Origin: Escherichia coli | GTDB taxonomy: Bacteria > Pseudomonadota > Gammaproteobacteria > Enterobacterales > Enterobacteriaceae | Direction: 5' to 3' (one strand) | NCBI RefSeq assembly: GCF_036507355.1 | Contig: NZ_AP027877.1 | Length of the DNA stretch: 64,000 bases | Position numbers and translations under genes: made by a program | The notes under the pieces: model-generated | Databases searched by the model: none | What the model was told of the DNA's origin: nothing | Seen by the model: only the letters and a program-made list of their open reading frames with translations | Shown: positions 2,435-40,507 of the stretch, piece by piece | Layout of the letters: each line of letters starts with the position of its first letter | Numbering within the stretch: the first letter of the stretch is position 1

Positions 2435-3606
2435 TATTTTTCTTCCTTCTTATCGCCGTGAGCCTTACCTGCGGTGTCAGACGCATTCATTTGCAGATAT
2501 TTCAACAAGGTGCGTTCTTCACGTTTATCGAGGCTGGTAAAGCCGATCATGCCGTTGAGCGTGCCAATCCAGCCGTTAGCGTCAAAGTGAGAGATTTCCG
2601 GTGCGCCGTGGCACTGGTTACAGGTGCCGTTGTACAACGAATCCGCATAAGCCCAGATCGGTTTGATATCGTTCACCATGTCACCTTTCTTCATCCACGC
2701 GGTGGCTTGCAACTTGCTCCACTCGGTATTGGTGTCGGCAACGGTGGTTTTCTCCAGCGTTTTCACCTGCTGCTGCACATCACCACGAATCGAGGCAACA
2801 AAGATGCGTTTACCTGGGAATTGGGTGAGTACACGCTGACGTCCGGCGCTTTCTGTCCAGCCGGTAATTTCAATTTGCAGCCAGTCGCCGTCACGTTTAA
2901 GGACTTTCACTTCCGAAGCAGGCAGCAGTGAACCAGATGCTTCTTTATCGCCTTTCGCCGCATAAATTGGCTTAATATCAATAGAGTACAGCGTGTCACC
3001 ACTGTCATTAGCACTGGCGCGCAGCTCATCGAACTGCTTACGGAAGCCGCTACTCATATCCGGTAACTGGTGGGCAATACCTTTATGACAGTCGATGCAG
3101 GATTGATTATCTTTCGCTGCCACCTTCATCTGACGTGCCGCTTCAGGATGCTGCTTCGCATGATCCATCGCATCGTAGTTATGGCAGGAGCGACAGGTTG
3201 CCGAGTTGTTTTCTTTCATTCGCGCCCATTCACGCTCGGCAAGTTCCGCGCGTTTGGCTTCGAATTTTTCAGGAGTATCAATGGAGTGGGCAATAAAGGT
3301 CTGGTAGATATCGTTGCTCGCTTCCAGTTTGCGCTTCACCATGCCTGGAATATCCGGCGGGATATGACAGTCATGGCATTCAGCTCGCACGCCGGAGGCG
3401 TTCTGGAAATGCACCGACTGTTTATATTCTTCATACACTGGTTGCATACTGTGGCAACTGACACAAAATTCGGTTGTGCTGGTGACTTTGATCCCAACGT
3501 GTGGCAATACAATCAGCGCAATGCCAATCACAATCCCAATAGCGACCAGCGCCAGTACCGACCAACGAGCACTGGGTCGGCGTAGCGCGTTCCAGAGTTT
3601 CCGCAT
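2434..3606 (-). CDS. torC: Pentaheme c-type cytochrome TorC
   Basis: ORF 2434..3654; recognised start MRKLWNAL at 3606; several CxxCH heme motifs in translation. Confidence 0.93.
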   Translation of the reverse strand: MRKLWNALRRPSARWSVLALVAIGIVIGIALIVLPHVGIKVTSTTEFCVSCHSMQPVYEEYKQSVHFQNASGVRAECHDCHIPPDIPGMVKRKLEASNDIYQTFIAHSIDTPEKFEAKRAELAEREWARMKENNSATCRSCHNYDAMDHAKQHPEAARQMKVAAKDNQSCIDCHKGIAHQLPDMSSGFRKQFDELRASANDSGDTLYSIDIKPIYAAKGDKEASGSLLPASEVKVLKRDGDWLQIEITGWTESAGRQRVLTQFPGKRIFVASIRGDVQQQVKTLEKTTVADTNTEWSKLQATAWMKKGDMVNDIKPIWAYADSLYNGTCNQCHGAPEISHFDANGWIGTLNGMIGFTSLDKREERTLLKYLQMNASDTAGKAHGDKKEEK

Positions 3607-3654
3607 AATAGCCCCTGTAAAATTATGGTTTAGTGAAGCGATCTTAATGAGCAA

Positions 3655-3717
3655 ATATGAACAGCGGCACTGGTCAGGATGAATGGCTTACGGCAGAATA
3701 TGAACAGATATGAACAG
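3655..3717 (-). promoter_or_regulatory. tor boxes (TorR-binding decamers) in torR-torC divergent region
   Basis: ATATGAACAG (reverse complement of CTGTTCATAT) at 3655-3664, 3698-3707, 3708-3717; degenerate copy GGATGAATGG near 3678-3687. Confidence 0.8.
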
Positions 3718-3735: not shown

Positions 3736-4428
3736 ATGCCACATCACATTGTTATTGTTGAAGATGAGCCGGTTACCCAGGCGCGATTACAATCCTACTT
3801 CACTCAGGAGGGGTATACCGTTTCCGTTACGGCGAGCGGTGCCGGGCTACGGGAAATTATGCAGAATCAGCCGGTGGATTTAATTCTGCTGGATATCAAC
3901 TTGCCCGATGAAAATGGCCTGATGTTAACCCGCGCCCTGCGAGAACGCTCAACGGTGGGGATTATTCTGGTTACCGGACGCAGCGATCGGATTGACCGTA
4001 TTGTTGGGCTGGAAATGGGCGCAGACGATTACGTCACCAAACCGCTGGAACTGCGCGAACTGGTAGTACGGGTAAAAAATCTGCTCTGGCGAATCGACCT
4101 CGCGCGACAAGCTCAACCGTACACTCAGGACAACTGCTATCGCTTTGCGGGTTATTGCCTGAATGTGTCGCGCCATACGCTGGAGCGGGATGGCGAGCCG
4201 ATTAAACTGACCCGCGCAGAGTATGAAATGTTGGTGGCATTTGTGACCAATCCGGGCGAAATTCTCAGCCGTGAACGTCTGCTTCGTATGCTCTCTGCGC
4301 GTCGGGTGGAAAACCCTGACCTGCGCACCGTCGATGTGTTAATTCGTCGTTTACGCCATAAACTCAGCGCGGATTTACTGGTGACGCAACATGGCGAAGG
4401 TTATTTCTTAGCCGCTGATGTGTGCTGA
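3736..4428 (+). CDS. torR: Response regulator TorR (OmpR family)
   Basis: 230-aa ORF; receiver domain then winged-helix; matches TorR. Confidence 0.95.
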   Translation: MPHHIVIVEDEPVTQARLQSYFTQEGYTVSVTASGAGLREIMQNQPVDLILLDINLPDENGLMLTRALRERSTVGIILVTGRSDRIDRIVGLEMGADDYVTKPLELRELVVRVKNLLWRIDLARQAQPYTQDNCYRFAGYCLNVSRHTLERDGEPIKLTRAEYEMLVAFVTNPGEILSRERLLRMLSARRVENPDLRTVDVLIRRLRHKLSADLLVTQHGEGYFLAADVC

Positions 4429-5429
4429 TAAAAATAGACCGGACGAAATCCCCCTGGCGACAGCGAGCGGCGGATATGTTCGCGGTCGGCATTTTTCGGC
4501 GTCAGAACTAAAATCGGTGGGCTGACATTATCAGACACCGATTGACCCTGTAATTGCCTGATGGTCTGCTCAACCGCCAGTTCCCCCTGCCAGACCATTT
4601 GATCGCTGGCAGCCATAATCACTCTTCCCCGCTTCAGCCCGCGATACACCTGATGTGAAAGATAAAACGACACCACGGTAAGCGGCGTGTTCAGGTTGCG
4701 CCCTTCACCCATTGCCGCCTCTGCCGCAATGGCCGTTCCGGCAACGACGTCGATTTCTGGATGGCGTTCCAGCATCTCCTGCAACAGGTTACGCTGGATT
4801 TCAATATCGTTATCACCGAGCGCAATATCAACAATACGCACCGGGCTTCCGGCAATGGCTGCGCGAAAACCCTCGACCATCTCCTTACTGCCCCCGGCGT
4901 TATCGGGTCCGGGCATCAACAGCACGTTCAGTGGTTTACCGTGCGCCCATTGCACCAGATATCGCCCAGGTTGATAGCCCATCTGAAACCAGGGTACACC
5001 AACGCGGCTTTTCACCTGGGGAGCATCAATAGCATTTACCAGTTCGATCACCGGCAGACTTGCTACCTGCTTTTGCAGATCGGGAAATGACGTCGTGCTA
5101 CTACCGAGCAAAATGGCCTCTGCGCCCCACTGTTTACACTGGTCGATTTGTGCTTGCTGGGTAGCCAACTGGCTGTAGCCGCCTGCCTCCAGCACTTTTA
5201 AATCCACACCGTAGCGGCGAGCAGCCTCCTGCATACCATAGTTCAACGATAACCAGTATGAATCTTTCAGGCTGGGATAAAGCGCGCACAGTTTCCATGC
5301 GCGTTTGGCTTTAAGCGGCATAGAGGCTTGCACCGTGAAATGCTGCGCATCATGCCAGCGCAACAGGTTATCAGCCGAAAATGCCGGCAACATGAAAAGG
5401 GAAAGAAGTAAAAATAGCAGTACGCGCAT
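4401..5429 (-). CDS. torT: Periplasmic TMAO-binding protein TorT
   Basis: 342-aa ORF with N-terminal signal peptide [19 protein letters not shown]; 3' end overlaps torR 3' end by 28 bp (convergent). Confidence 0.93.
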
Positions 5430-34394: not shown

Positions 34395-36446
34395 CGGTTT
34401 TCTCGCCACCGGCACATCCAGATTTTTCAGTATTTCCACAAAGGGAGAGGGATTCTCTTTGTTAAACAGTGCCCATACCCGATGGCGTGCCCGGGTCAGC
34501 GCCACGTACATTAACCGCCGTTCTTCAGCGTCCGGGAAATCCTCAACCGGTGGCAGTAGCGCCTCTTCCATAATCGACTCCCGCGCCGCAGCCGGAAAAC
34601 CATCACTTCCCTCCTGCAAGCCAACGATGATGACGTAATCCGCCTGTTGCCCTTTGCTGGCATGAATGGTCATAAAGTCGATTTGCAACTTCGGCCAGCG
34701 TGTTGCCGCTTTTTCCAGGCTGGCAGGCCTCATGTGATGGTAACGCGCCAGGATCAGAATGCGCTCTTCCGGTTTGGCATAACCAGAGAGCTTATCCAGC
34801 AAAGCGTCAAGTTGACTCTCATCCAATAACGTGACGGCTTTTTTGTCTCCATTGGTTAAGCTGTTTAGCGGCTTTTTCAGCTGGCCTGGGTTCTGCTGAA
34901 TAAACCGGTTTGCCACCTCACCGATACGACTGTTAAAACGGTAAGTCGTGTCTAAATCACAGCGATCGCCTTCACCAAAGTTTTCATGGAAAGCGGTGGT
35001 GAGCGACATTTGCGCACCGCTGAATCGGTAAATCGCCTGCCAGTCATCACCAACGGCGAACAACGTCGTCTGACTGTTTTGCTTGCGTAATGCCGCTAAC
35101 AACGCTGCCCGCTGCGGCGAGATATCCTGAAATTCATCAACCAGAATATGCTTCCACGGGCTGATAAAGCGACCTTTCTCCAGAATCACAATCGCCTGAT
35201 GAATAAGGCCCGAAAAATCGACAGCGTTTTCTGCCTTCAGCGCACCTTTCCAGGCTTTTAATAACGGGGCCATCAACTTGATACGTTTACTGAACAGATC
35301 GCGAATCTCTTCGGGTGCACTGGCAATCATTTCTGCCTGTGCACCACCGTGCATCCGCATCAGACTTACCCAACGATCGAGGCGTGAGGCAAGACGACGC
35401 TGTAATTTTTCATCATCCCAGAAGTTACCTTCTGGCACTGACCACTGCATTTCTTCCGTCAGCCATTGCCGCCAGCCCTTCGCCTGCGCTTTCTTTTCGC
35501 TGCATTGCTTGCGCCACTCAGCAATAAAGAGTTCATGACGGGCAGCGGTATCATTTTCCAGTTTGCTGACTATCGGAACTTTTTTGCTGCCCTGCTGAAT
35601 AATATGCAGCGCCAGCGCATGAAACGTGCGTGCGGTAATGTCTTCGGTATGTAGCCGTTCGCGAATACGCTCGTCCATCTCTTCAGCGGCTTTGCGACCA
35701 AACGCCAGCAATAAAATTTGCTCAGGGGACGCTTCACCACGCGCCAGCAACCAGCCTGCACGGGCCACCAGCACCGACGTTTTTCCGCTTCCTGCACCTG
35801 CCAGCACTAACAGAGAATGCTCGCCATTAACGACTGCCCGGGCCTGCGCCGGATTCAGCGGTGAAGACTCGACCTGGCGGAAAAAATCCGCATACTCGGT
35901 AAGCATGGCTTCGGTATACGCCTGGTTATGCTGCAACCGAGCGCTTTCAATATCTTTCAACCAGGCCTGACATTTACGCCACGCCTCACGGCAGTTATCG
36001 AATTCTTCCAGTCGGTTAACCGGCAACGGCAACGCCGACAAAGCCTGGCGGATTTGTTGCTGAACGCCAGAGGTTTGCTCACGCGTCAGCCATTTATTTT
36101 CTCCAGTGCGCGTGGCAATCAAATCCAGTTGCTGGCGTAAAACACCAGACGCAATTTCGCTCATCTCGCCACTCCACCGCCGCCAGTGAGCATCAAGATG
36201 ATGGTAAAAACGCTGCGTCTCGCCCCATTCGGTGCCGTGCAGACGCACCACTTTTTCGTCCGGCAGTACAAATTCCAGCTCGCCCCATACCAGACCGCGC
36301 TTACAGTGAATCGCCAGTAATTGATTGAAAGGAATAAGGTATTCGTGGCGATCGCCGGAGACTTTAATCCCGGCATTGAGGATCACCGCCCGATCGTAAG
36401 GGTGCTGTGCCAGACGTTTTCCAAGCGTTGTCGCTTTCAGTTCCAT
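34392..36446 (-). CDS. helD: DNA helicase IV
   Basis: ORF 34392..36539; recognised start MELKATTLGKRLAQHPYDRAV at 36446 (684 aa); Walker A GAGSGKT. Confidence 0.93.
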   Translation of the reverse strand: MELKATTLGKRLAQHPYDRAVILNAGIKVSGDRHEYLIPFNQLLAIHCKRGLVWGELEFVLPDEKVVRLHGTEWGETQRFYHHLDAHWRRWSGEMSEIASGVLRQQLDLIATRTGENKWLTREQTSGVQQQIRQALSALPLPVNRLEEFDNCREAWRKCQAWLKDIESARLQHNQAYTEAMLTEYADFFRQVESSPLNPAQARAVVNGEHSLLVLAGAGSGKTSVLVARAGWLLARGEASPEQILLLAFGRKAAEEMDERIRERLHTEDITARTFHALALHIIQQGSKKVPIVSKLENDTAARHELFIAEWRKQCSEKKAQAKGWRQWLTEEMQWSVPEGNFWDDEKLQRRLASRLDRWVSLMRMHGGAQAEMIASAPEEIRDLFSKRIKLMAPLLKAWKGALKAENAVDFSGLIHQAIVILEKGRFISPWKHILVDEFQDISPQRAALLAALRKQNSQTTLFAVGDDWQAIYRFSGAQMSLTTAFHENFGEGDRCDLDTTYRFNSRIGEVANRFIQQNPGQLKKPLNSLTNGDKKAVTLLDESQLDALLDKLSGYAKPEERILILARYHHMRPASLEKAATRWPKLQIDFMTIHASKGQQADYVIIVGLQEGSDGFPAAARESIMEEALLPPVEDFPDAEERRLMYVALTRARHRVWALFNKENPSPFVEILKNLDVPVARKP

Positions 36447-36568
36447 GACTCTGTAGATCCACACGAAATTATTTCTTATCAGTGTAACCGTCAGAGAAAA
36501 CGTGCTCCAGCCCAAAAAAACGTTACAATTGCCGCCCATTACTGAAAACCACAGTAAAGCGAGGTTTT

Positions 36569-37015
36569 ATGCGTACCGTTTTGAACATTCTGAACTTTGT
36601 GCTTGGCGGATTTGCCACCACTCTGGGCTGGCTGTTGGCGACTCTGGTCAGTATTGTGCTGATTTTTACCTTACCGCTGACACGATCCTGCTGGGAGATC
36701 ACTAAACTGTCTCTGGTGCCTTATGGCAATGAAGCTATTCATGTCGATGAACTGAACCCGGCTGGCAAAAATGTGCTGCTGAATACTGGCGGTACGGTAT
36801 TGAATATTTTCTGGCTGATTTTCTTTGGCTGGTGGTTATGCCTGATGCACATTGCAACGGGCATCGCACAATGTATTTCAATCATTGGCATTCCTGTCGG
36901 CATTGCGAACTTTAAAATTGCCGCTATTGCACTATGGCCGGTTGGTCGTCGCGTGGTATCGGTAGAAACAGCGCAAGCTGCGCGTGAAGCCAATGCACGT
37001 CGTCGTTTTGAATAA
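36569..37015 (+). CDS. yccF: Inner membrane protein YccF
   Basis: 148-aa membrane ORF. Confidence 0.92.
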   Translation: MRTVLNILNFVLGGFATTLGWLLATLVSIVLIFTLPLTRSCWEITKLSLVPYGNEAIHVDELNPAGKNVLLNTGGTVLNIFWLIFFGWWLCLMHIATGIAQCISIIGIPVGIANFKIAAIALWPVGRRVVSVETAQAAREANARRRFE

Positions 37016-37024
37016 TCCACTAAT

Positions 37025-39187
37025 ATGGCCTTTATGCTAAGTCCTTTGCTCAAACGCTATACATGGAACAGCGCCTGGCTGTATTACGCGCGTATTTTTA
37101 TTGCGCTTTGTGGAACCACAGCGTTTCCGTGGTGGCTGGGTGATGTAAAACTGACGATTCCGCTGACGCTGGGGATGGTGGCAGCGGCGCTGACCGATCT
37201 CGATGACCGACTGGCGGGACGTTTGCGTAACCTCATCATTACGCTGTTCTGCTTTTTTATCGCCTCGGCCTCAGTAGAATTGCTGTTTCCCTGGCCCTGG
37301 CTATTTGCGATTGGCTTAACGCTCTCTACCAGCGGCTTCATTTTGCTCGGCGGTCTGGGTCAACGCTATGCAACAATTGCCTTCGGTGCATTGCTGATCG
37401 CCATTTACACTATGTTGGGAACATCACTGTATGAGCACTGGTATCAGCAGCCGATGTATCTGCTGGCCGGTGCCGTCTGGTACAACGTCCTGACACTTAT
37501 TGGTCATCTGCTGTTCCCGGTCCGCCCGCTGCAGGACAACCTGGCGCGTTGCTATGAACAACTGGCGCGTTATCTTGAGCTCAAGTCGCGCATGTTTGAT
37601 CCTGATATTGAAGATGAAAGCCAGGCACCGCTGTACGATTTGGCTCTCGCCAACGGTCAGCTGATGGCGACATTGAATCAGACGAAACTCTCGCTGCTGA
37701 CCCGCTTACGTGGCGATCGTGGTCAACGGGGAACGCGTCGCACGCTGCATTATTACTTTGTCGCACAGGATATTCACGAGCGTGCCAGCTCTTCTCATAT
37801 TCAGTATCAAACATTGCGTGAACATTTTCGCCACAGCGACGTGCTGTTCCGTTTTCAGCGGCTGATGTCGATGCAGGGCCAGGCGTGCCAGCAACTGTCA
37901 CGCTGTATTTTGCTGCGTCAGCCTTATCAACATGATCCGCATTTTGAGCGCGCTTTTACGCATATTGATGCTGCCCTGGAGCGGATGCGCGATAACGGCG
38001 CGCCTGCCGATTTACTCAAAACACTGGGATTTTTGCTGAACAATTTACGCGCCATTGATGCCCAACTGGCAACAATTGAATCAGAACAGGCCCAGGCACT
38101 GCCCCATAATAATGACGAAAATGAGCTCGCTGATGACAGCCCGCACGGATTGAGTGATATCTGGCTGCGTCTTAGCCGTCACTTCACGCCGGAATCCGCC
38201 CTCTTCCGTCATGCGGTAAGAATGTCGCTGGTGTTGTGCTTCGGCTACGCCATCATTCAAATAACCGGAATGCATCACGGGTATTGGATCTTGCTGACAA
38301 GTTTGTTTGTCTGCCAGCCAAACTATAACGCCACGCGCCACCGCCTGAAGTTAAGGATTATTGGTACGCTGGTAGGTATCGCCATTGGCATTCCTGTGCT
38401 GTGGTTTGTGCCATCACTGGAAGGGCAGCTGGTGCTGCTGGTTATTACCGGCGTGCTCTTTTTTGCCTTCCGTAACGTGCAATACGCTCATGCAACGATG
38501 TTCATCACACTTTTGGTGCTACTGTGTTTTAACTTACTGGGTGAAGGTTTTGAAGTAGCGTTACCTCGCGTAATCGATACGCTGATTGGTTGTGCCATTG
38601 CGTGGGCGGCAGTGAGCTACATCTGGCCTGACTGGCAGTTTCGCAATCTGCCGCGCATGCTCGAACGCGCCACAGAGGCCAACTGTCGCTATCTCGATGC
38701 CATACTGGAGCAATACCATCAGGGGCGTGATAACCGTCTGGCGTATCGTATTGCCCGCCGCGATGCACACAACCGTGATGCTGAACTGGCGTCGGTGGTA
38801 TCAAATATGTCCAGCGAACCGAACGTTACCCCGCAAATTCGCGAAGCCGCGTTTCGGTTGCTGTGCCTTAACCATACGTTTACCAGCTATATCTCAGCCC
38901 TCGGTGCTCACCGGGAGCAGTTAACTAATCCTGAAATTCTGGCGTTTCTTGATGACGCAGTTTGCTATGTTGATGACGCGTTACATCATCAACCTGCTGA
39001 TGAAGAACGCGTCAATCAGGCATTAGCTGGCCTGAAACAGCGGATGCAGCAACTTGAACCACGGGCAGACAGCAAAGAACCTCTGGTCGTACAACAAGTT
39101 GGGTTATTGATTGCATTACTGCCTGAGATTGGTCGTCTGCAACGCCAGATTACTCAAGTTCCGCAGGAAACTCCTGTTTCGGCGTAA
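37025..39187 (+). CDS. yccS: Inner membrane protein YccS (FUSC-like, putative efflux/transport)
   Basis: 720-aa ORF with two blocks of TM helices; annotated start may be a few codons downstream. Confidence 0.88.
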   Translation: MAFMLSPLLKRYTWNSAWLYYARIFIALCGTTAFPWWLGDVKLTIPLTLGMVAAALTDLDDRLAGRLRNLIITLFCFFIASASVELLFPWPWLFAIGLTLSTSGFILLGGLGQRYATIAFGALLIAIYTMLGTSLYEHWYQQPMYLLAGAVWYNVLTLIGHLLFPVRPLQDNLARCYEQLARYLELKSRMFDPDIEDESQAPLYDLALANGQLMATLNQTKLSLLTRLRGDRGQRGTRRTLHYYFVAQDIHERASSSHIQYQTLREHFRHSDVLFRFQRLMSMQGQACQQLSRCILLRQPYQHDPHFERAFTHIDAALERMRDNGAPADLLKTLGFLLNNLRAIDAQLATIESEQAQALPHNNDENELADDSPHGLSDIWLRLSRHFTPESALFRHAVRMSLVLCFGYAIIQITGMHHGYWILLTSLFVCQPNYNATRHRLKLRIIGTLVGIAIGIPVLWFVPSLEGQLVLLVITGVLFFAFRNVQYAHATMFITLLVLLCFNLLGEGFEVALPRVIDTLIGCAIAWAAVSYIWPDWQFRNLPRMLERATEANCRYLDAILEQYHQGRDNRLAYRIARRDAHNRDAELASVVSNMSSEPNVTPQIREAAFRLLCLNHTFTSYISALGAHREQLTNPEILAFLDDAVCYVDDALHHQPADEERVNQALAGLKQRMQQLEPRADSKEPLVVQQVGLLIALLPEIGRLQRQITQVPQETPVSA

Positions 39188-39779
39188 GAGAGTCAGCCCA
39201 TTCTGCAAGCTCCTGGCGGCGTGCCACCGGGAGCGCAGCTTCATGAATGCCGATAATGGCACCTTCAAGCATAAACAGAATCTTTTCTGTCACCAGACTG
39301 TTTTGCTGCCGCAGTCGCAACCAACACATTTTTGCCCCAAGTATACGTAACGCCCGTACATCCTTAATCCCCACCTCCCCGAGAATCGCTTCCAGATGAA
39401 AAGACATATTGGGCAAATCTTTCAGTCTTTCCCGGGTATTGCGCGTGCTTTTCTCTTTCAGCGCTGCATCGAGAGAATATTTCGACAGACGCACCAGCTT
39501 CAGTTGATTTCGCCATAGACTTTCATCAACCCGATAGTAATTGAGGGTAACGGATCGGCCACACTTTTTATATGTCAGCCAGACAGGCGGATGTTTTACA
39601 CAGTACTGTGCACTTTGCTCACAAGCCCGAAGATACAACTCACCATCAGAAACCATCGCAAACACCGTGTCGTCAACGGTCAGGCTGTAACTGCCAAACA
39701 ATGATCGGTATTCAATTGTGCCCAACGTTGCCAGGTATTCTTGTGATTTATAGATCCGCTTATAGGAGAGGCTTTTCAT
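39150..39779 (-). CDS. sxy: Competence regulator Sxy (TfoX)
   Basis: 209-aa ORF MKSLSYKRIYKSQEYLATLGTIEYRSLFG; 3' end overlaps yccS 3' end by 38 bp. Confidence 0.92.
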   Translation of the reverse strand: MKSLSYKRIYKSQEYLATLGTIEYRSLFGSYSLTVDDTVFAMVSDGELYLRACEQSAQYCVKHPPVWLTYKKCGRSVTLNYYRVDESLWRNQLKLVRLSKYSLDAALKEKSTRNTRERLKDLPNMSFHLEAILGEVGIKDVRALRILGAKMCWLRLRQQNSLVTEKILFMLEGAIIGIHEAALPVARRQELAEWADSLTPKQEFPAELE

Positions 39780-39955
39780 AAAATTCCTTTTAAAATCATA
39801 ACATAAAAGAATGATTCACATTAACGGATCCGTTAACTACGAAAATAGGCAACTTATTCTTAAGGGGCAAGATTAATTTATGTTTTCCCGTCACCAACGA
39901 CAAAATTTGCGAGGCTCTTTCCGAAAATAGGGTTGATCTTTGTTGTCACTGGATG

Positions 39956-39975
39956 TACTGTATATCCATACAGTA
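39956..39975 (+). promoter_or_regulatory. LexA box (SOS operator) of sulA
   Basis: TACTGTATATCCATACAGTA, CTGT-N8-ACAG palindrome, 22 bp upstream of sulA start. Confidence 0.9.
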
Positions 39976-39997
39976 ACTCACAGGGGCTGGATTGATT

Positions 39998-40507
39998 ATG
40001 TACACTTCAGGCTATGCACATCGTTCTTCGTCGTTCTCATCCGCAGCAAGTAAAATTGCGCGTGTCTCTACGGAAAACACTACAGCCGGGCTTATCAGTG
40101 AAGTTGTCTATCGCGAAGATCAGCCCATGATGACGCAACTTCTACTGTTGCCATTGTTACAGCAACTCGGTCAGCAATCGCGCTGGCAACTCTGGTTAAC
40201 ACCGCAACAAAAACTGAGTCGGGAATGGGTTCAGGCATCTGGGCTACCCTTAACGAAAGTAATGCAGATTAGCCAGCTCCCCCCTTGCCACACTGTGGAG
40301 TCAATGGTTCGCGCTTTACGCACGGGCAATTACAGTGTGGTGATCGGTTGGTTGGCAGATGATTTGACTGAAGAAGAGCATGCTGAACTTGTTGATGCGG
40401 CAAATGAAGGTAACGCTATGGGGTTTATTATGCGTCCGGTAAGCGCATCCTCTCACGCAACGAGACAACTTTCCGGGCTAAAAATTCACTCTAATTTGTA
40501 TCATTAA
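39998..40507 (+). CDS. sulA: SOS cell division inhibitor SulA
   Basis: ORF 39992..40507; recognised start [15 protein letters not shown] at 39998 (169 aa). Confidence 0.94.

Follow-up and report, generated by a model that had tools for sequence, protein, structure and literature searches.

Coding overlap of yccS and sxy in Escherichia coli: a compact convergent junction and a probable yccFS mRNA 3' stem-loop inside sxy

Does the short coding overlap between the convergent genes yccS and sxy of Escherichia coli serve to limit the expression of sxy, as a sequence-only reading of this locus had proposed? The locus lies in a window of 64,000 nucleotides (contig NZ_AP027877.1), which is the whole stretch of DNA that was analysed; all positions refer to it. 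On the + strand, yccS (37025–39187), the second gene of the yccF-yccS operon, encodes a 720-residue FUSC-like inner-membrane protein and ends with the TAA at 39185–39187. On the − strand, sxy (tfoX; 39150–39779) encodes the 209-residue co-activator of the CRP-S regulon and ends with a TAA that is the complement of 39150–39152. Both stops come from the ORF listing, and both genes are further identified by RefSeq annotation, Pfam matches, and comparison with orthologues of yccS and homologues of sxy. The two frames share 38 bp (39150–39187, both strands). The + strand of this segment encodes YccS residues 708–720, ITQVPQETPVSA, plus the stop, and the − strand encodes Sxy residues 199–209, TPKQEFPAELE, plus the stop, together with two nucleotides of the L198 codon.

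The overlap is genuine yet ordinary, and it has already been annotated and published. In RefSeq/PGAP, a strain that is 100% identical here is annotated with the same two CDSs and the same 38-bp overlap, in agreement with the ORF listing and with what the sequence-only reading had claimed. There is no earlier yccS stop, and neither frame has an upstream in-frame stop. An annotation artefact can be rejected, given that the stops are unambiguous and that both genes have orthologues and Pfam domains (FUSC-like, FUSC_2, and FUSC in YccS, with the last match ending at residue 685; TfoX_N at residues 14–106 and TfoX_C at residues 116–194 in Sxy). With shared 3' coding ends and two ORFs that are both genuine genes, the locus is a convergent overlapping gene pair. 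It resembles other prokaryotic pairs of this kind in having opposite-strand genes with short, shared 3' ends in C-terminal extensions, and in an overlap length that shifts between species through stop gain or loss. Nothing material sets it apart from them; its 38 bp exceed the common 4-bp class, represented in the window by tusE/yccX. For E. coli, 75 convergent CDS overlaps have been reported (PMC4161906), and in the first 50 kb of the window, three convergent junctions out of nine overlap (by 28, 4, and 38 bp). The 28-bp overlap that had also been noted between torR (+, 3736–4428) and torT (−, 4401–5429) was likewise borne out; the shared segment is 4401–4428, and it is annotated in RefSeq. 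For torR in the window, a hairpin followed by T5 is located inside torT; this pair and tusE/yccX hint that hairpins placed within a convergent partner gene could be widespread.

The gene pair was compared across 80 Enterobacteriaceae species, in which orthologues are 79–99% identical for YccS and 54–98% identical for Sxy. The two genes are convergent in all 80 species, and their coding sequences overlap in 76, by 4–80 bp where an overlap is present, so that the length runs from none up to 80 bp among species that share the gene order. It is 11 bp in loci L013 and L015; the values for L012 and L041 (47 and 44 bp), which have internal frame breaks in yccS, are from the first-pass measurement. 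The 38-bp length is found in Escherichia only. Both C-terminal tails lie outside the Pfam domains, and neither their sequence nor their length is conserved. The last conserved codons, those of YccS ...LLPEIGRL and of Sxy W194, are separated by a variable 58-bp spacer (39140–39197, both strands) that the tails of both reading frames traverse. This spacer is 58 bp long in 45 of the 76 measurable loci and 48–59 bp long in 74 of them. Per-site diversity at its centre is 0.5–0.65; in the cores on either side, third codon positions have values of 0.49 and 0.56. When the 58-bp spacer was randomised and the real flanks were kept, 79% of trials produced an overlap, and in 68% it reached 38 bp or more; the natural overlap is thus not above chance expectation. 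Because the spacer shows roughly synonymous diversity, the length drifts, and randomised spacers overlap in 79% of trials, these comparisons indicate that a compact junction yields the overlap as a near-neutral by-product. They likewise indicate that its length is set by stop-codon drift and not by selection on the shared bases. A selected dual-coding region was rejected on the grounds that diversity in the overlap approximates that of synonymous sites and that neither peptide tail is conserved. These tests lend no support to a role of the overlap in limiting sxy expression: the shared bases are approximately neutral, and the length varies from none to 80 bp.

According to published RNA-seq analyses, the transcripts of the two genes overlap. 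A complete mRNA of either gene necessarily carries at least 38 nt complementary to the CDS of its partner, as the earlier reading had recognised, and no intrinsic terminator is present at the junction. On a rival view, the coding overlap itself would be selected, with yccFS transcription colliding with sxy transcripts or forming double-stranded RNA with them and so keeping Sxy low, which would make the pair a true excludon. An excludon consists of neighbouring genes with overlapping transcripts (PMC12288877), and both sxy-yccS and torT-torR stand among the 165 convergent excludons of MG1655 reported with ExcludonFinder (NAR 2025, PMC12288877, Table 1). To be listed there, a pair must show overlapping coverage in 50% or more of 58 transcriptomes (PMC12288877). 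The sxy and yccFS operons also converge in RNA-seq (Conway 2014 mBio, PMC4161252), and the abutting arrangement is kept in 76 of the 80 species. Antisense interference here is thus a known idea, as the excludon concept has been published and its published list includes this pair. However, the definition of convergent excludons includes mutual exclusion and RNase III processing in addition to the overlap of neighbouring transcripts, and yccS/sxy is known from transcript overlap alone. Moreover, overlapping 3' ends occur in 276 of the 370 convergent operons of E. coli, and therefore an overlap alone is no sign of regulation. The variable length, the roughly synonymous rate at which the overlap bases evolve, and the frequency of overlaps expected by chance at the given spacing also argue against selection on the shared bases. 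In the literature searched, yccFS transcription was not reported to affect Sxy or sxy; that literature ascribes low Sxy to missing CRP-S auto-activation. Lon proteolysis is another cause of low Sxy that Jaskolska and Gerdes reportedly put forward in 2015. Taken together, we regard a true excludon selected for its coding overlap as rather unlikely. No entries for a mapped 3' end of yccS or sxy were present in those supplements of Term-seq (Adams 2021), SMRT-Cappable-seq, and TERMITe that could be searched.

By folding and species comparison, the sole constrained element near the overlap is a GC-rich conserved stem-loop, GCTCCTGGCGGCGTGCCACCGGGAGC (39209–39234, + strand), that lies deeper in sxy. 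It starts 22 nt downstream of the yccS stop, within sxy codons A182–L191, and we propose it as the 3'-terminal stem-loop of the yccFS mRNA. In E. coli, its minimum free energy on the + strand is −22.5 kcal/mol (z −2.97), and it folds equally well on the − strand (−22.8 kcal/mol, z −3.06). Across 78 loci, the medians are −21.7 kcal/mol on the + strand and −19.2 kcal/mol on the − strand. Among the 36-nt windows within ±240 bp, it stands far out as the most stable across 45 species. The stem cells are paired in 91% of cases, compared with 38–52% in slid controls, and compensatory changes are seen at 5 of the 11 stem pairs, including pairs with the variable residues 185–186; none of 500 shuffles matches the observed pairing and compensation values. 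Synonymous codons in the stem are frozen (L183 CTC in 72/77, P184 CCG in 76/77, R188 CGC in 70/78, and E190 GAG in 69/76), whereas Leu and Glu codons elsewhere in sxy vary freely and use CTG/CTT and GAA. The hairpin sits in the most conserved motif of Sxy, and protein constraint therefore accounts for part of this conservation. Nonetheless, the codon and pairing patterns indicate that the hairpin constrains the synonymous codons of sxy.

Because the hairpin is equally stable on both strands in E. coli, the assignment of a strand rests on G·U pairs across species and on loci in which the genes have separated. Seventy-three G·U cells pair solely on the yccS-sense strand, as compared to 19 solely on the sxy-sense strand, and the + strand hairpin is more stable than the − strand hairpin in 67 of 78 loci. 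In the two species in which yccS lies apart from sxy (L048 and L050), the Sxy motif LPxxRRQxL is retained with changed codons and the hairpin has decayed; a new hairpin lacking a U-tract is found 9–10 nt past the yccS stop. In L063 and L084, a different hairpin lies within the sxy CDS, downstream of yccS. The stem-loop is not universal, since a strong hairpin after yccS is absent in L083, L085, and L088, three distant lineages in which the genes abut. In L090, a hairpin lies between yccS and sxy, where it is intergenic and shared.

The same data bear on the possibility that the stem-loop works not in the yccFS transcript but in the sxy mRNA, through stability or translation pausing near the 3' end, or in DNA as a protein-bound inverted repeat. 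The E. coli − strand energy and the cross-species − strand median are consistent with either role. A precedent exists in Haemophilus influenzae, in which sxy mRNA structure regulates translation, though at the 5' end (PMC2248739). In contrast, the excess of yccS-sense G·U pairs and the greater stability of the + strand argue against a role in sxy mRNA, and the corresponding T·G cells break the symmetry expected of a DNA palindrome. Furthermore, it is precisely in the loci from which yccS has moved away that the hairpin decays, while sxy and the protein motif stay, and a replacement appears after the yccS stop. A hairpin within the CDS also cannot be the 3' end of sxy. A sxy-sense or DNA role therefore appears very unlikely. 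A candidate sxy-sense stem-loop does lie on the − strand at 38974–39013, approximately 136–175 nt downstream of the sxy stop, with a folding energy of −20.6 kcal/mol in E. coli. It occupies yccS codons for YVDDALHH, recurs at that position in many species, and persists in L048 and L050; the DD and HH codons are intrinsically palindromic and may account for it. That the conserved hairpin inside sxy is only a by-product of codon bias and of the conserved Sxy motif EAALPxxRRxEL, with no RNA function, is highly improbable: its arms coincide with the invariant residues L183, P184, R188, E190, and L191, and the apparent YVDDALHH hairpin would be such a case, but the synonymous choices are unusual and fixed, some of the five compensated pairs involve variable residues, and L048 and L050 keep the motif with other codons and lose the hairpin.

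With the yccFS transcript as the preferred site of action, the sequence around the stem-loop bears on the type of 3' end that it would form. The hairpin is followed by GCAGCTTCATGAA, with only 3 U in the next 11 nt, and it lacks a U-tract on either strand; an intrinsic (Rho-independent) terminator at 39209–39234 was accordingly rejected, the hairpin being present and the U-tract absent. A consensus terminator scan flags no intrinsic terminator at the stem-loop or the junction. An intrinsic or bidirectional terminator inside the overlap was also rejected, since the palindrome there, CAGGAAACTCCTG (39171–39183), is weak, precedes the yccS stop, and falls in the most variable sequence; the overlap region contains no significant fold (z −1.47 and −0.09). 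An Rfam search of 38700–40000 gave no meaningful match, the one chance snoRNA match (E = 0.15) lying below the gathering score. At convergent junctions with shared or embedded intrinsic terminators, bidirectional ones among them, one hairpin can likewise serve the transcripts that end there, as at agp / wrbA-yccJ, whose shared terminator is an example in Conway 2014 (PMC4161252). The yccS/sxy hairpin differs in having no U-tract on either strand and in lying within one gene rather than between two.

The stem-loop has two properties of the protective type of Rho-dependent 3' end, namely stability near a stop codon and the absence of a U-rich tract. As described by Dar and Sorek in 2018 (PMC6061677), Rho-dependent transcripts are trimmed back by exonucleases to stable stem-loop 3' ends. 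The yccFS stem-loop resembles those of that account in both properties and may do so in the C-rich, G-poor sequence right downstream. It differs from them in being written in the CDS of the convergent gene, where it constrains synonymous sites, and for yccFS the 3' end and its Rho dependence are predicted ones. The downstream tract (39247–39430, + strand, yccS-sense) is defined by composition and is a putative rut-type region. In E. coli, its C content is 0.29–0.40 and its G content 0.14–0.17; in 73 loci, the first 120 nt past the hairpin have a median C of 0.32–0.33 versus a median G of 0.22, with C exceeding G in 90–100%. Antisense-of-coding RNA is generally C-rich, and this C-richness is therefore unspecific as evidence for a rut site.

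Our studies support, with reasonable though not high confidence, an explanation in which a compact junction, drifting tails, and an embedded yccFS 3' stem-loop are taken together. The yccF-yccS operon and sxy are held tail-to-tail with zero intergenic DNA throughout the sampled Enterobacteriaceae, and in most species 58 bp separate the conserved protein cores. Both frames run as unconstrained tails through the spacer to their own stops, and therefore overlap. The genes leave no space between them for a terminator, and the signal for the yccFS 3' end would therefore lie inside sxy. RNA polymerase would continue past the end of yccS and produce antisense-sxy RNA that is not translated. Rho would terminate the yccFS transcript further downstream, and 3'-to-5' exonucleases would then shorten it as far as the stem-loop, a structure that would both set the mRNA end and stabilise it. 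The conserved hairpin is probably, on this comparative evidence, the 3'-end stem-loop of the yccFS mRNA. Because it lies at sxy codons 182–191, the yccS transcript would functionally extend into sxy by more than 38 nt; the yccFS and sxy mRNAs would be complementary over at least about 85 nt, which may permit transcriptional interference or excludon-type processing of double-stranded RNA. A bolder version holds that sxy codons 182–191 carry a stabilising or terminating 3'-terminal stem-loop of the yccFS mRNA that is under synonymous-site selection across the sampled Enterobacteriaceae, that every yccFS mRNA would be obligately antisense to the sxy mRNA 3' end over 85 nt or more, and that yccFS transcription would help to silence Sxy in laboratory E. 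coli; as a whole, we consider this version quite unlikely.

The overlap as such matters little, as it is present in every annotation, is one of about 75 in E. coli, and joins a pair already catalogued. The analysis clarifies that the overlap bases are unconstrained and that the selected feature is the stem-loop deeper in sxy, at which the yccFS mRNA most likely ends. As such, it would illustrate clearly how the CDS of one gene can carry the transcript-end signal of its neighbour, where the signal shows as synonymous codons that are frozen. Work that recodes or mutates sxy towards its 3' end, or that deletes either gene, may alter the mRNA of the partner gene. The stem-loop also opens a way to ask whether yccFS transcription helps to explain why sxy is silent in E. 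coli.

The yccS and sxy genes converge with overlapping 3′ coding ends, as the sequence-only reading had claimed. A mechanical ORF listing places yccS at 37025-39187 on the plus strand (720 aa, stop TAA) and sxy at 39150-39779 on the minus strand (209 aa, stop TAA), with a common segment of 38 bp (39150-39187, ttactcaagttccgcaggaaactcctgtttcggcgtaa); RefSeq/PGAP gives the same coordinates in an identical strain. Neither the yccS nor the sxy frame contains an earlier in-frame stop, so the overlap is not undone by an upstream yccS terminus. The window is chromosomal DNA of E. coli: of 5426 complete genomes of the species, 5425 contain a match to a 1.2-kb query around the site, with identity of 99% or more in almost every case. 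The 28-bp overlap proposed for torR (3736-4428, plus strand) and torT (4401-5429, minus strand) is likewise present. A third convergent coding overlap, of 4 bp (30575-30578), joins tusE (plus strand, ending at 30578) and yccX (minus strand, ending at 30575). Nine convergent junctions lie in the first 50 kb of the window, and three of them overlap, by 28, 4, and 38 bp. Start-codon ambiguities in this part of the window (36392-36569 and 34392-36539) are unrelated to the overlap. The longest helD ORF (715 aa) begins at an ATG upstream of the RefSeq start (annotated 684 aa), and YccS is 720 aa by PGAP, the K-12 annotation having a shorter start.

The arrangement was compared across 80 Enterobacteriaceae species drawn from a genome scan with Sxy alignment. 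yccS is convergent to sxy in all 80, and the coding sequences overlap in 76, by 4, 7, 11, 14, 16, 20, 23, 32, 35, 38, 41, 44, 47, or 80 bp. Among these species, the 38-bp length occurs in Escherichia only; E. albertii has 41 bp, Salmonella 14 and 23 bp, Citrobacter 11-47 bp, and Enterobacter 44 bp. Four loci lack an overlap: L078 (0 bp), L074 and L048, with gaps of 11 and 249 bp, and L050, with a 2286-bp insertion. The longest overlap, 80 bp, is found in Trabulsiella (L046, L064, and L072; around 3584-3663), in which Sxy is 220 aa with a tail 11 residues longer. In the Citrobacter amalonaticus (L012) and Enterobacter cloacae (L041) assemblies, the yccS frame is broken by an internal stop or frameshift, reflecting either a pseudogene or a sequencing error; their overlap lengths are first-pass values, since the break stopped recomputation.

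The overlap is the expected product of two open-ended tails in a short spacer. W194 is the last conserved residue of Sxy and the end of its Pfam TfoX_C match; in YccS, no Pfam match extends beyond residue 685, and conserved sequence stops at ...LLPEIxRL. The spacer between the last conserved codons is 58 bp in 45 of 76 measurable loci and 48-59 bp in 74, and both frames cross it as tails of varying sequence and length. With the real flanks kept and the spacer randomized, 79% of trials still produced an overlap and 68% produced one of 38 bp or more, consistent with this origin. Per-site nucleotide diversity at the spacer center is 0.5-0.65, as high as or higher than the 0.49 and 0.56 at third codon positions of the sxy and yccS cores, respectively. 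The 38 common bases show no detectable selection in either frame and are a near-neutral consequence of a compact junction.

A conserved RNA structure lies just beyond the overlap. A terminator scan found no intrinsic-terminator-like site at the junction, and folding of the overlap region gave no significant structure. In a sliding fold across 45 species, a 36-nt window centered on 39204-39239 is the sole strong outlier; its median fold energy is −22 kcal/mol, whereas the background lies between −3 and −8 kcal/mol. It holds a GC-rich stem-loop at 39209-39234 (GCTCCTGGCGGCGTGCCACCGGGAGC) that begins 22 nt downstream of the yccS stop, wholly within sxy codons A182-L191 (motif ALPxxRRxEL). The E. 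coli element folds at −22.5 kcal/mol on the plus strand (z −2.97) and −22.8 kcal/mol on the minus strand (z −3.06). Across 69 distinct sequences aligned without gaps, 91% of stem cells are paired; shifting the partners by 1-3 columns lowers this to 38-52%. Compensatory changes occur in 5 of 11 pairs, and none of 500 shuffles matched the actual pairing or covariation. Protein conservation alone appears insufficient to explain the stem-loop, because synonymous choices are frozen in its arms: L183 is CTC in 72/77, P184 CCG in 76/77, R188 CGC in 70/78, Q189 CAG in 45/46, and E190 GAG in 69/76. Elsewhere in sxy, both CTG and CTT encode invariant Leu residues, and GAA predominates for Glu. Not every lineage has the element; no strong hairpin was found in L083, L085, or L088, whose genes abut and whose Sxy proteins are 39-47% identical to that of E. 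coli.

Three lines of evidence point to the yccS-sense RNA, rather than the sxy-sense RNA, as the probable user of the stem-loop. Paired cells that are G·U only number 73 on the yccS-sense strand versus 19 on the sxy-sense strand, and in 67 of 78 loci the plus strand folds more stably. L048 and L050, whose two genes are set apart by intergenic DNA, offer a natural test of the link to yccS. Both retain the Sxy motif (TLPVQRRQEL and MLPMQRRQQL) with altered codons (CTG for Leu; AGA CGA or AGG CGT for Arg-Arg), and their hairpins are the weakest and third-weakest of 78 (−8.7 and −10.6 kcal/mol). Each carries a new stable intergenic hairpin, lacking a U-tract, 9-10 nt past the yccS stop (−19.3 and −18.6 kcal/mol), and sxy gains its own hairpin directly past its stop, which in L050 is a canonical terminator (GGGCGGC-GUCA-GCCGCCC-CUUUAUU). 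Lineages without the canonical stem have another downstream of yccS. L063 has a replacement 14 nt past the stop (−20.5 kcal/mol). The distant L084 (Sxy 43% identity) has a hairpin about 73 nt past it (about 3540-3575, −26.4 kcal/mol; CTCTGGCCAGCAC-TTCC-TGGTGCTGGCCAGA), embedded in sxy codons SGQHQEVLAR, and this hairpin appears to solve the same problem independently. In the distant relative L090 (Sxy 38% identical), the genes are 44 bp apart. The gap is filled by a single 11-bp GC hairpin (3628-3671; GGGTAGCCGGC-ACCCG-GCCGGCTACCC), likely a shared bidirectional terminator, which folds on either strand with energies of −24 and −25 kcal/mol.

The conserved stem-loop embedded in sxy thus probably belongs to yccFS. 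The bases directly following it are GCAGCUUCAUGAA, with no U-tract, and the E. coli RNA beyond it (39247-39430) has a C content of 0.29-0.40 and a G content of 0.14-0.17. Within the first 120 nt past the hairpin, 90-100% of 73 loci have more C than G, although such C-richness is general for RNA antisense to coding sequence. This context resembles the architecture described by Dar and Sorek (2018, PMC6061677) for Rho-dependent transcripts, in which a stable stem-loop without following uridines, with rut sites directly downstream, shields the 3′ end from exonucleases. On the basis of this match, we propose that yccFS transcription would run beyond the stop into untranslated antisense-sxy RNA, that Rho would end the read-through transcript, and that the RNA would be cut back to the stem-loop, giving an end at about 39235-39240. 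Neither yccS nor sxy 3′ ends appear in the searched Term-seq, SMRT-Cappable-seq, and TERMITe supplements, probably owing to low expression.

Other hairpins were noticed elsewhere in the window. Downstream of the torR stop (4428) and within torT, a hairpin of −18.9 kcal/mol (GGCGACAGCGAGCGG...CGCGGTCGGC; 4455-4496, plus strand), with TTTTT after it at 4492-4496, looks like a canonical intrinsic terminator of torR; a simple consensus scan missed it because its stem has mismatches. Supplement file 2 of Adams et al. (2021) has a row at 1056830 (MG1655, minus strand) that is labelled "antisense" to torT and gives an apparent ratio of 4.3. This row may represent Rho-dependent termination, which would agree with Rho limiting torR read-through into torT. 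About 12 nt past the yccX stop, inside tusE, lies a stable hairpin of −22.6 kcal/mol (about 30523-30562, minus strand). Overlapping convergent pairs may commonly carry embedded 3′ hairpins of this kind. On the sxy-sense strand, a stem-loop at 38974-39013 (minus strand) lies in yccS codons YVDDALHH, about 136-175 nt downstream of the end of sxy; it folds at −20.6 kcal/mol in E. coli and recurs in many species. It may mark the sxy mRNA end, but its DD/HH codons are intrinsically palindromic and it persists where yccS and sxy are separated.

The sequence-only reading also suggested antisense interference with sxy. The obligatory complementarity on which this rests holds, with 38 common bases at the 3′ coding ends, and would extend to at least about 85 nt (39150-39234) if the stem-loop marks the yccFS end. 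Because the mRNAs are complementary, interference or double-stranded RNA processing between them is possible, in agreement with the pair's place on the excludon list. Sxy levels in LB are described as very low, and its CRP-S auto-activation as having no known physiological trigger (PMC6728893); a literature search returned no report linking Sxy to yccFS. Most convergent E. coli operons have overlapping 3′ ends (276 of 370, with a mean overlap of 286 nt; Conway et al., PMC4161252), and we consider it unlikely that the yccFS overlap controls Sxy. Both the overlap and its antisense reading are known already, since Conway et al. note that the sxy and yccFS operons converge and ExcludonFinder lists the pair, and convergent coding overlaps in E. 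coli have been counted (75; PMC4161906). In the ExcludonFinder map (PMC12288877, 2025), sxy-yccS, yccX-tusE, and torT-torR are consecutive entries among 165 convergent excludons, defined by overlapping transcript coverage in 50% or more of 58 MG1655 transcriptomes. The 38-bp overlap is thus confirmed, yet ordinary and already catalogued. The stem-loop embedded in sxy adds a new example to an already known class of elements; its interest is modest and mainly practical.
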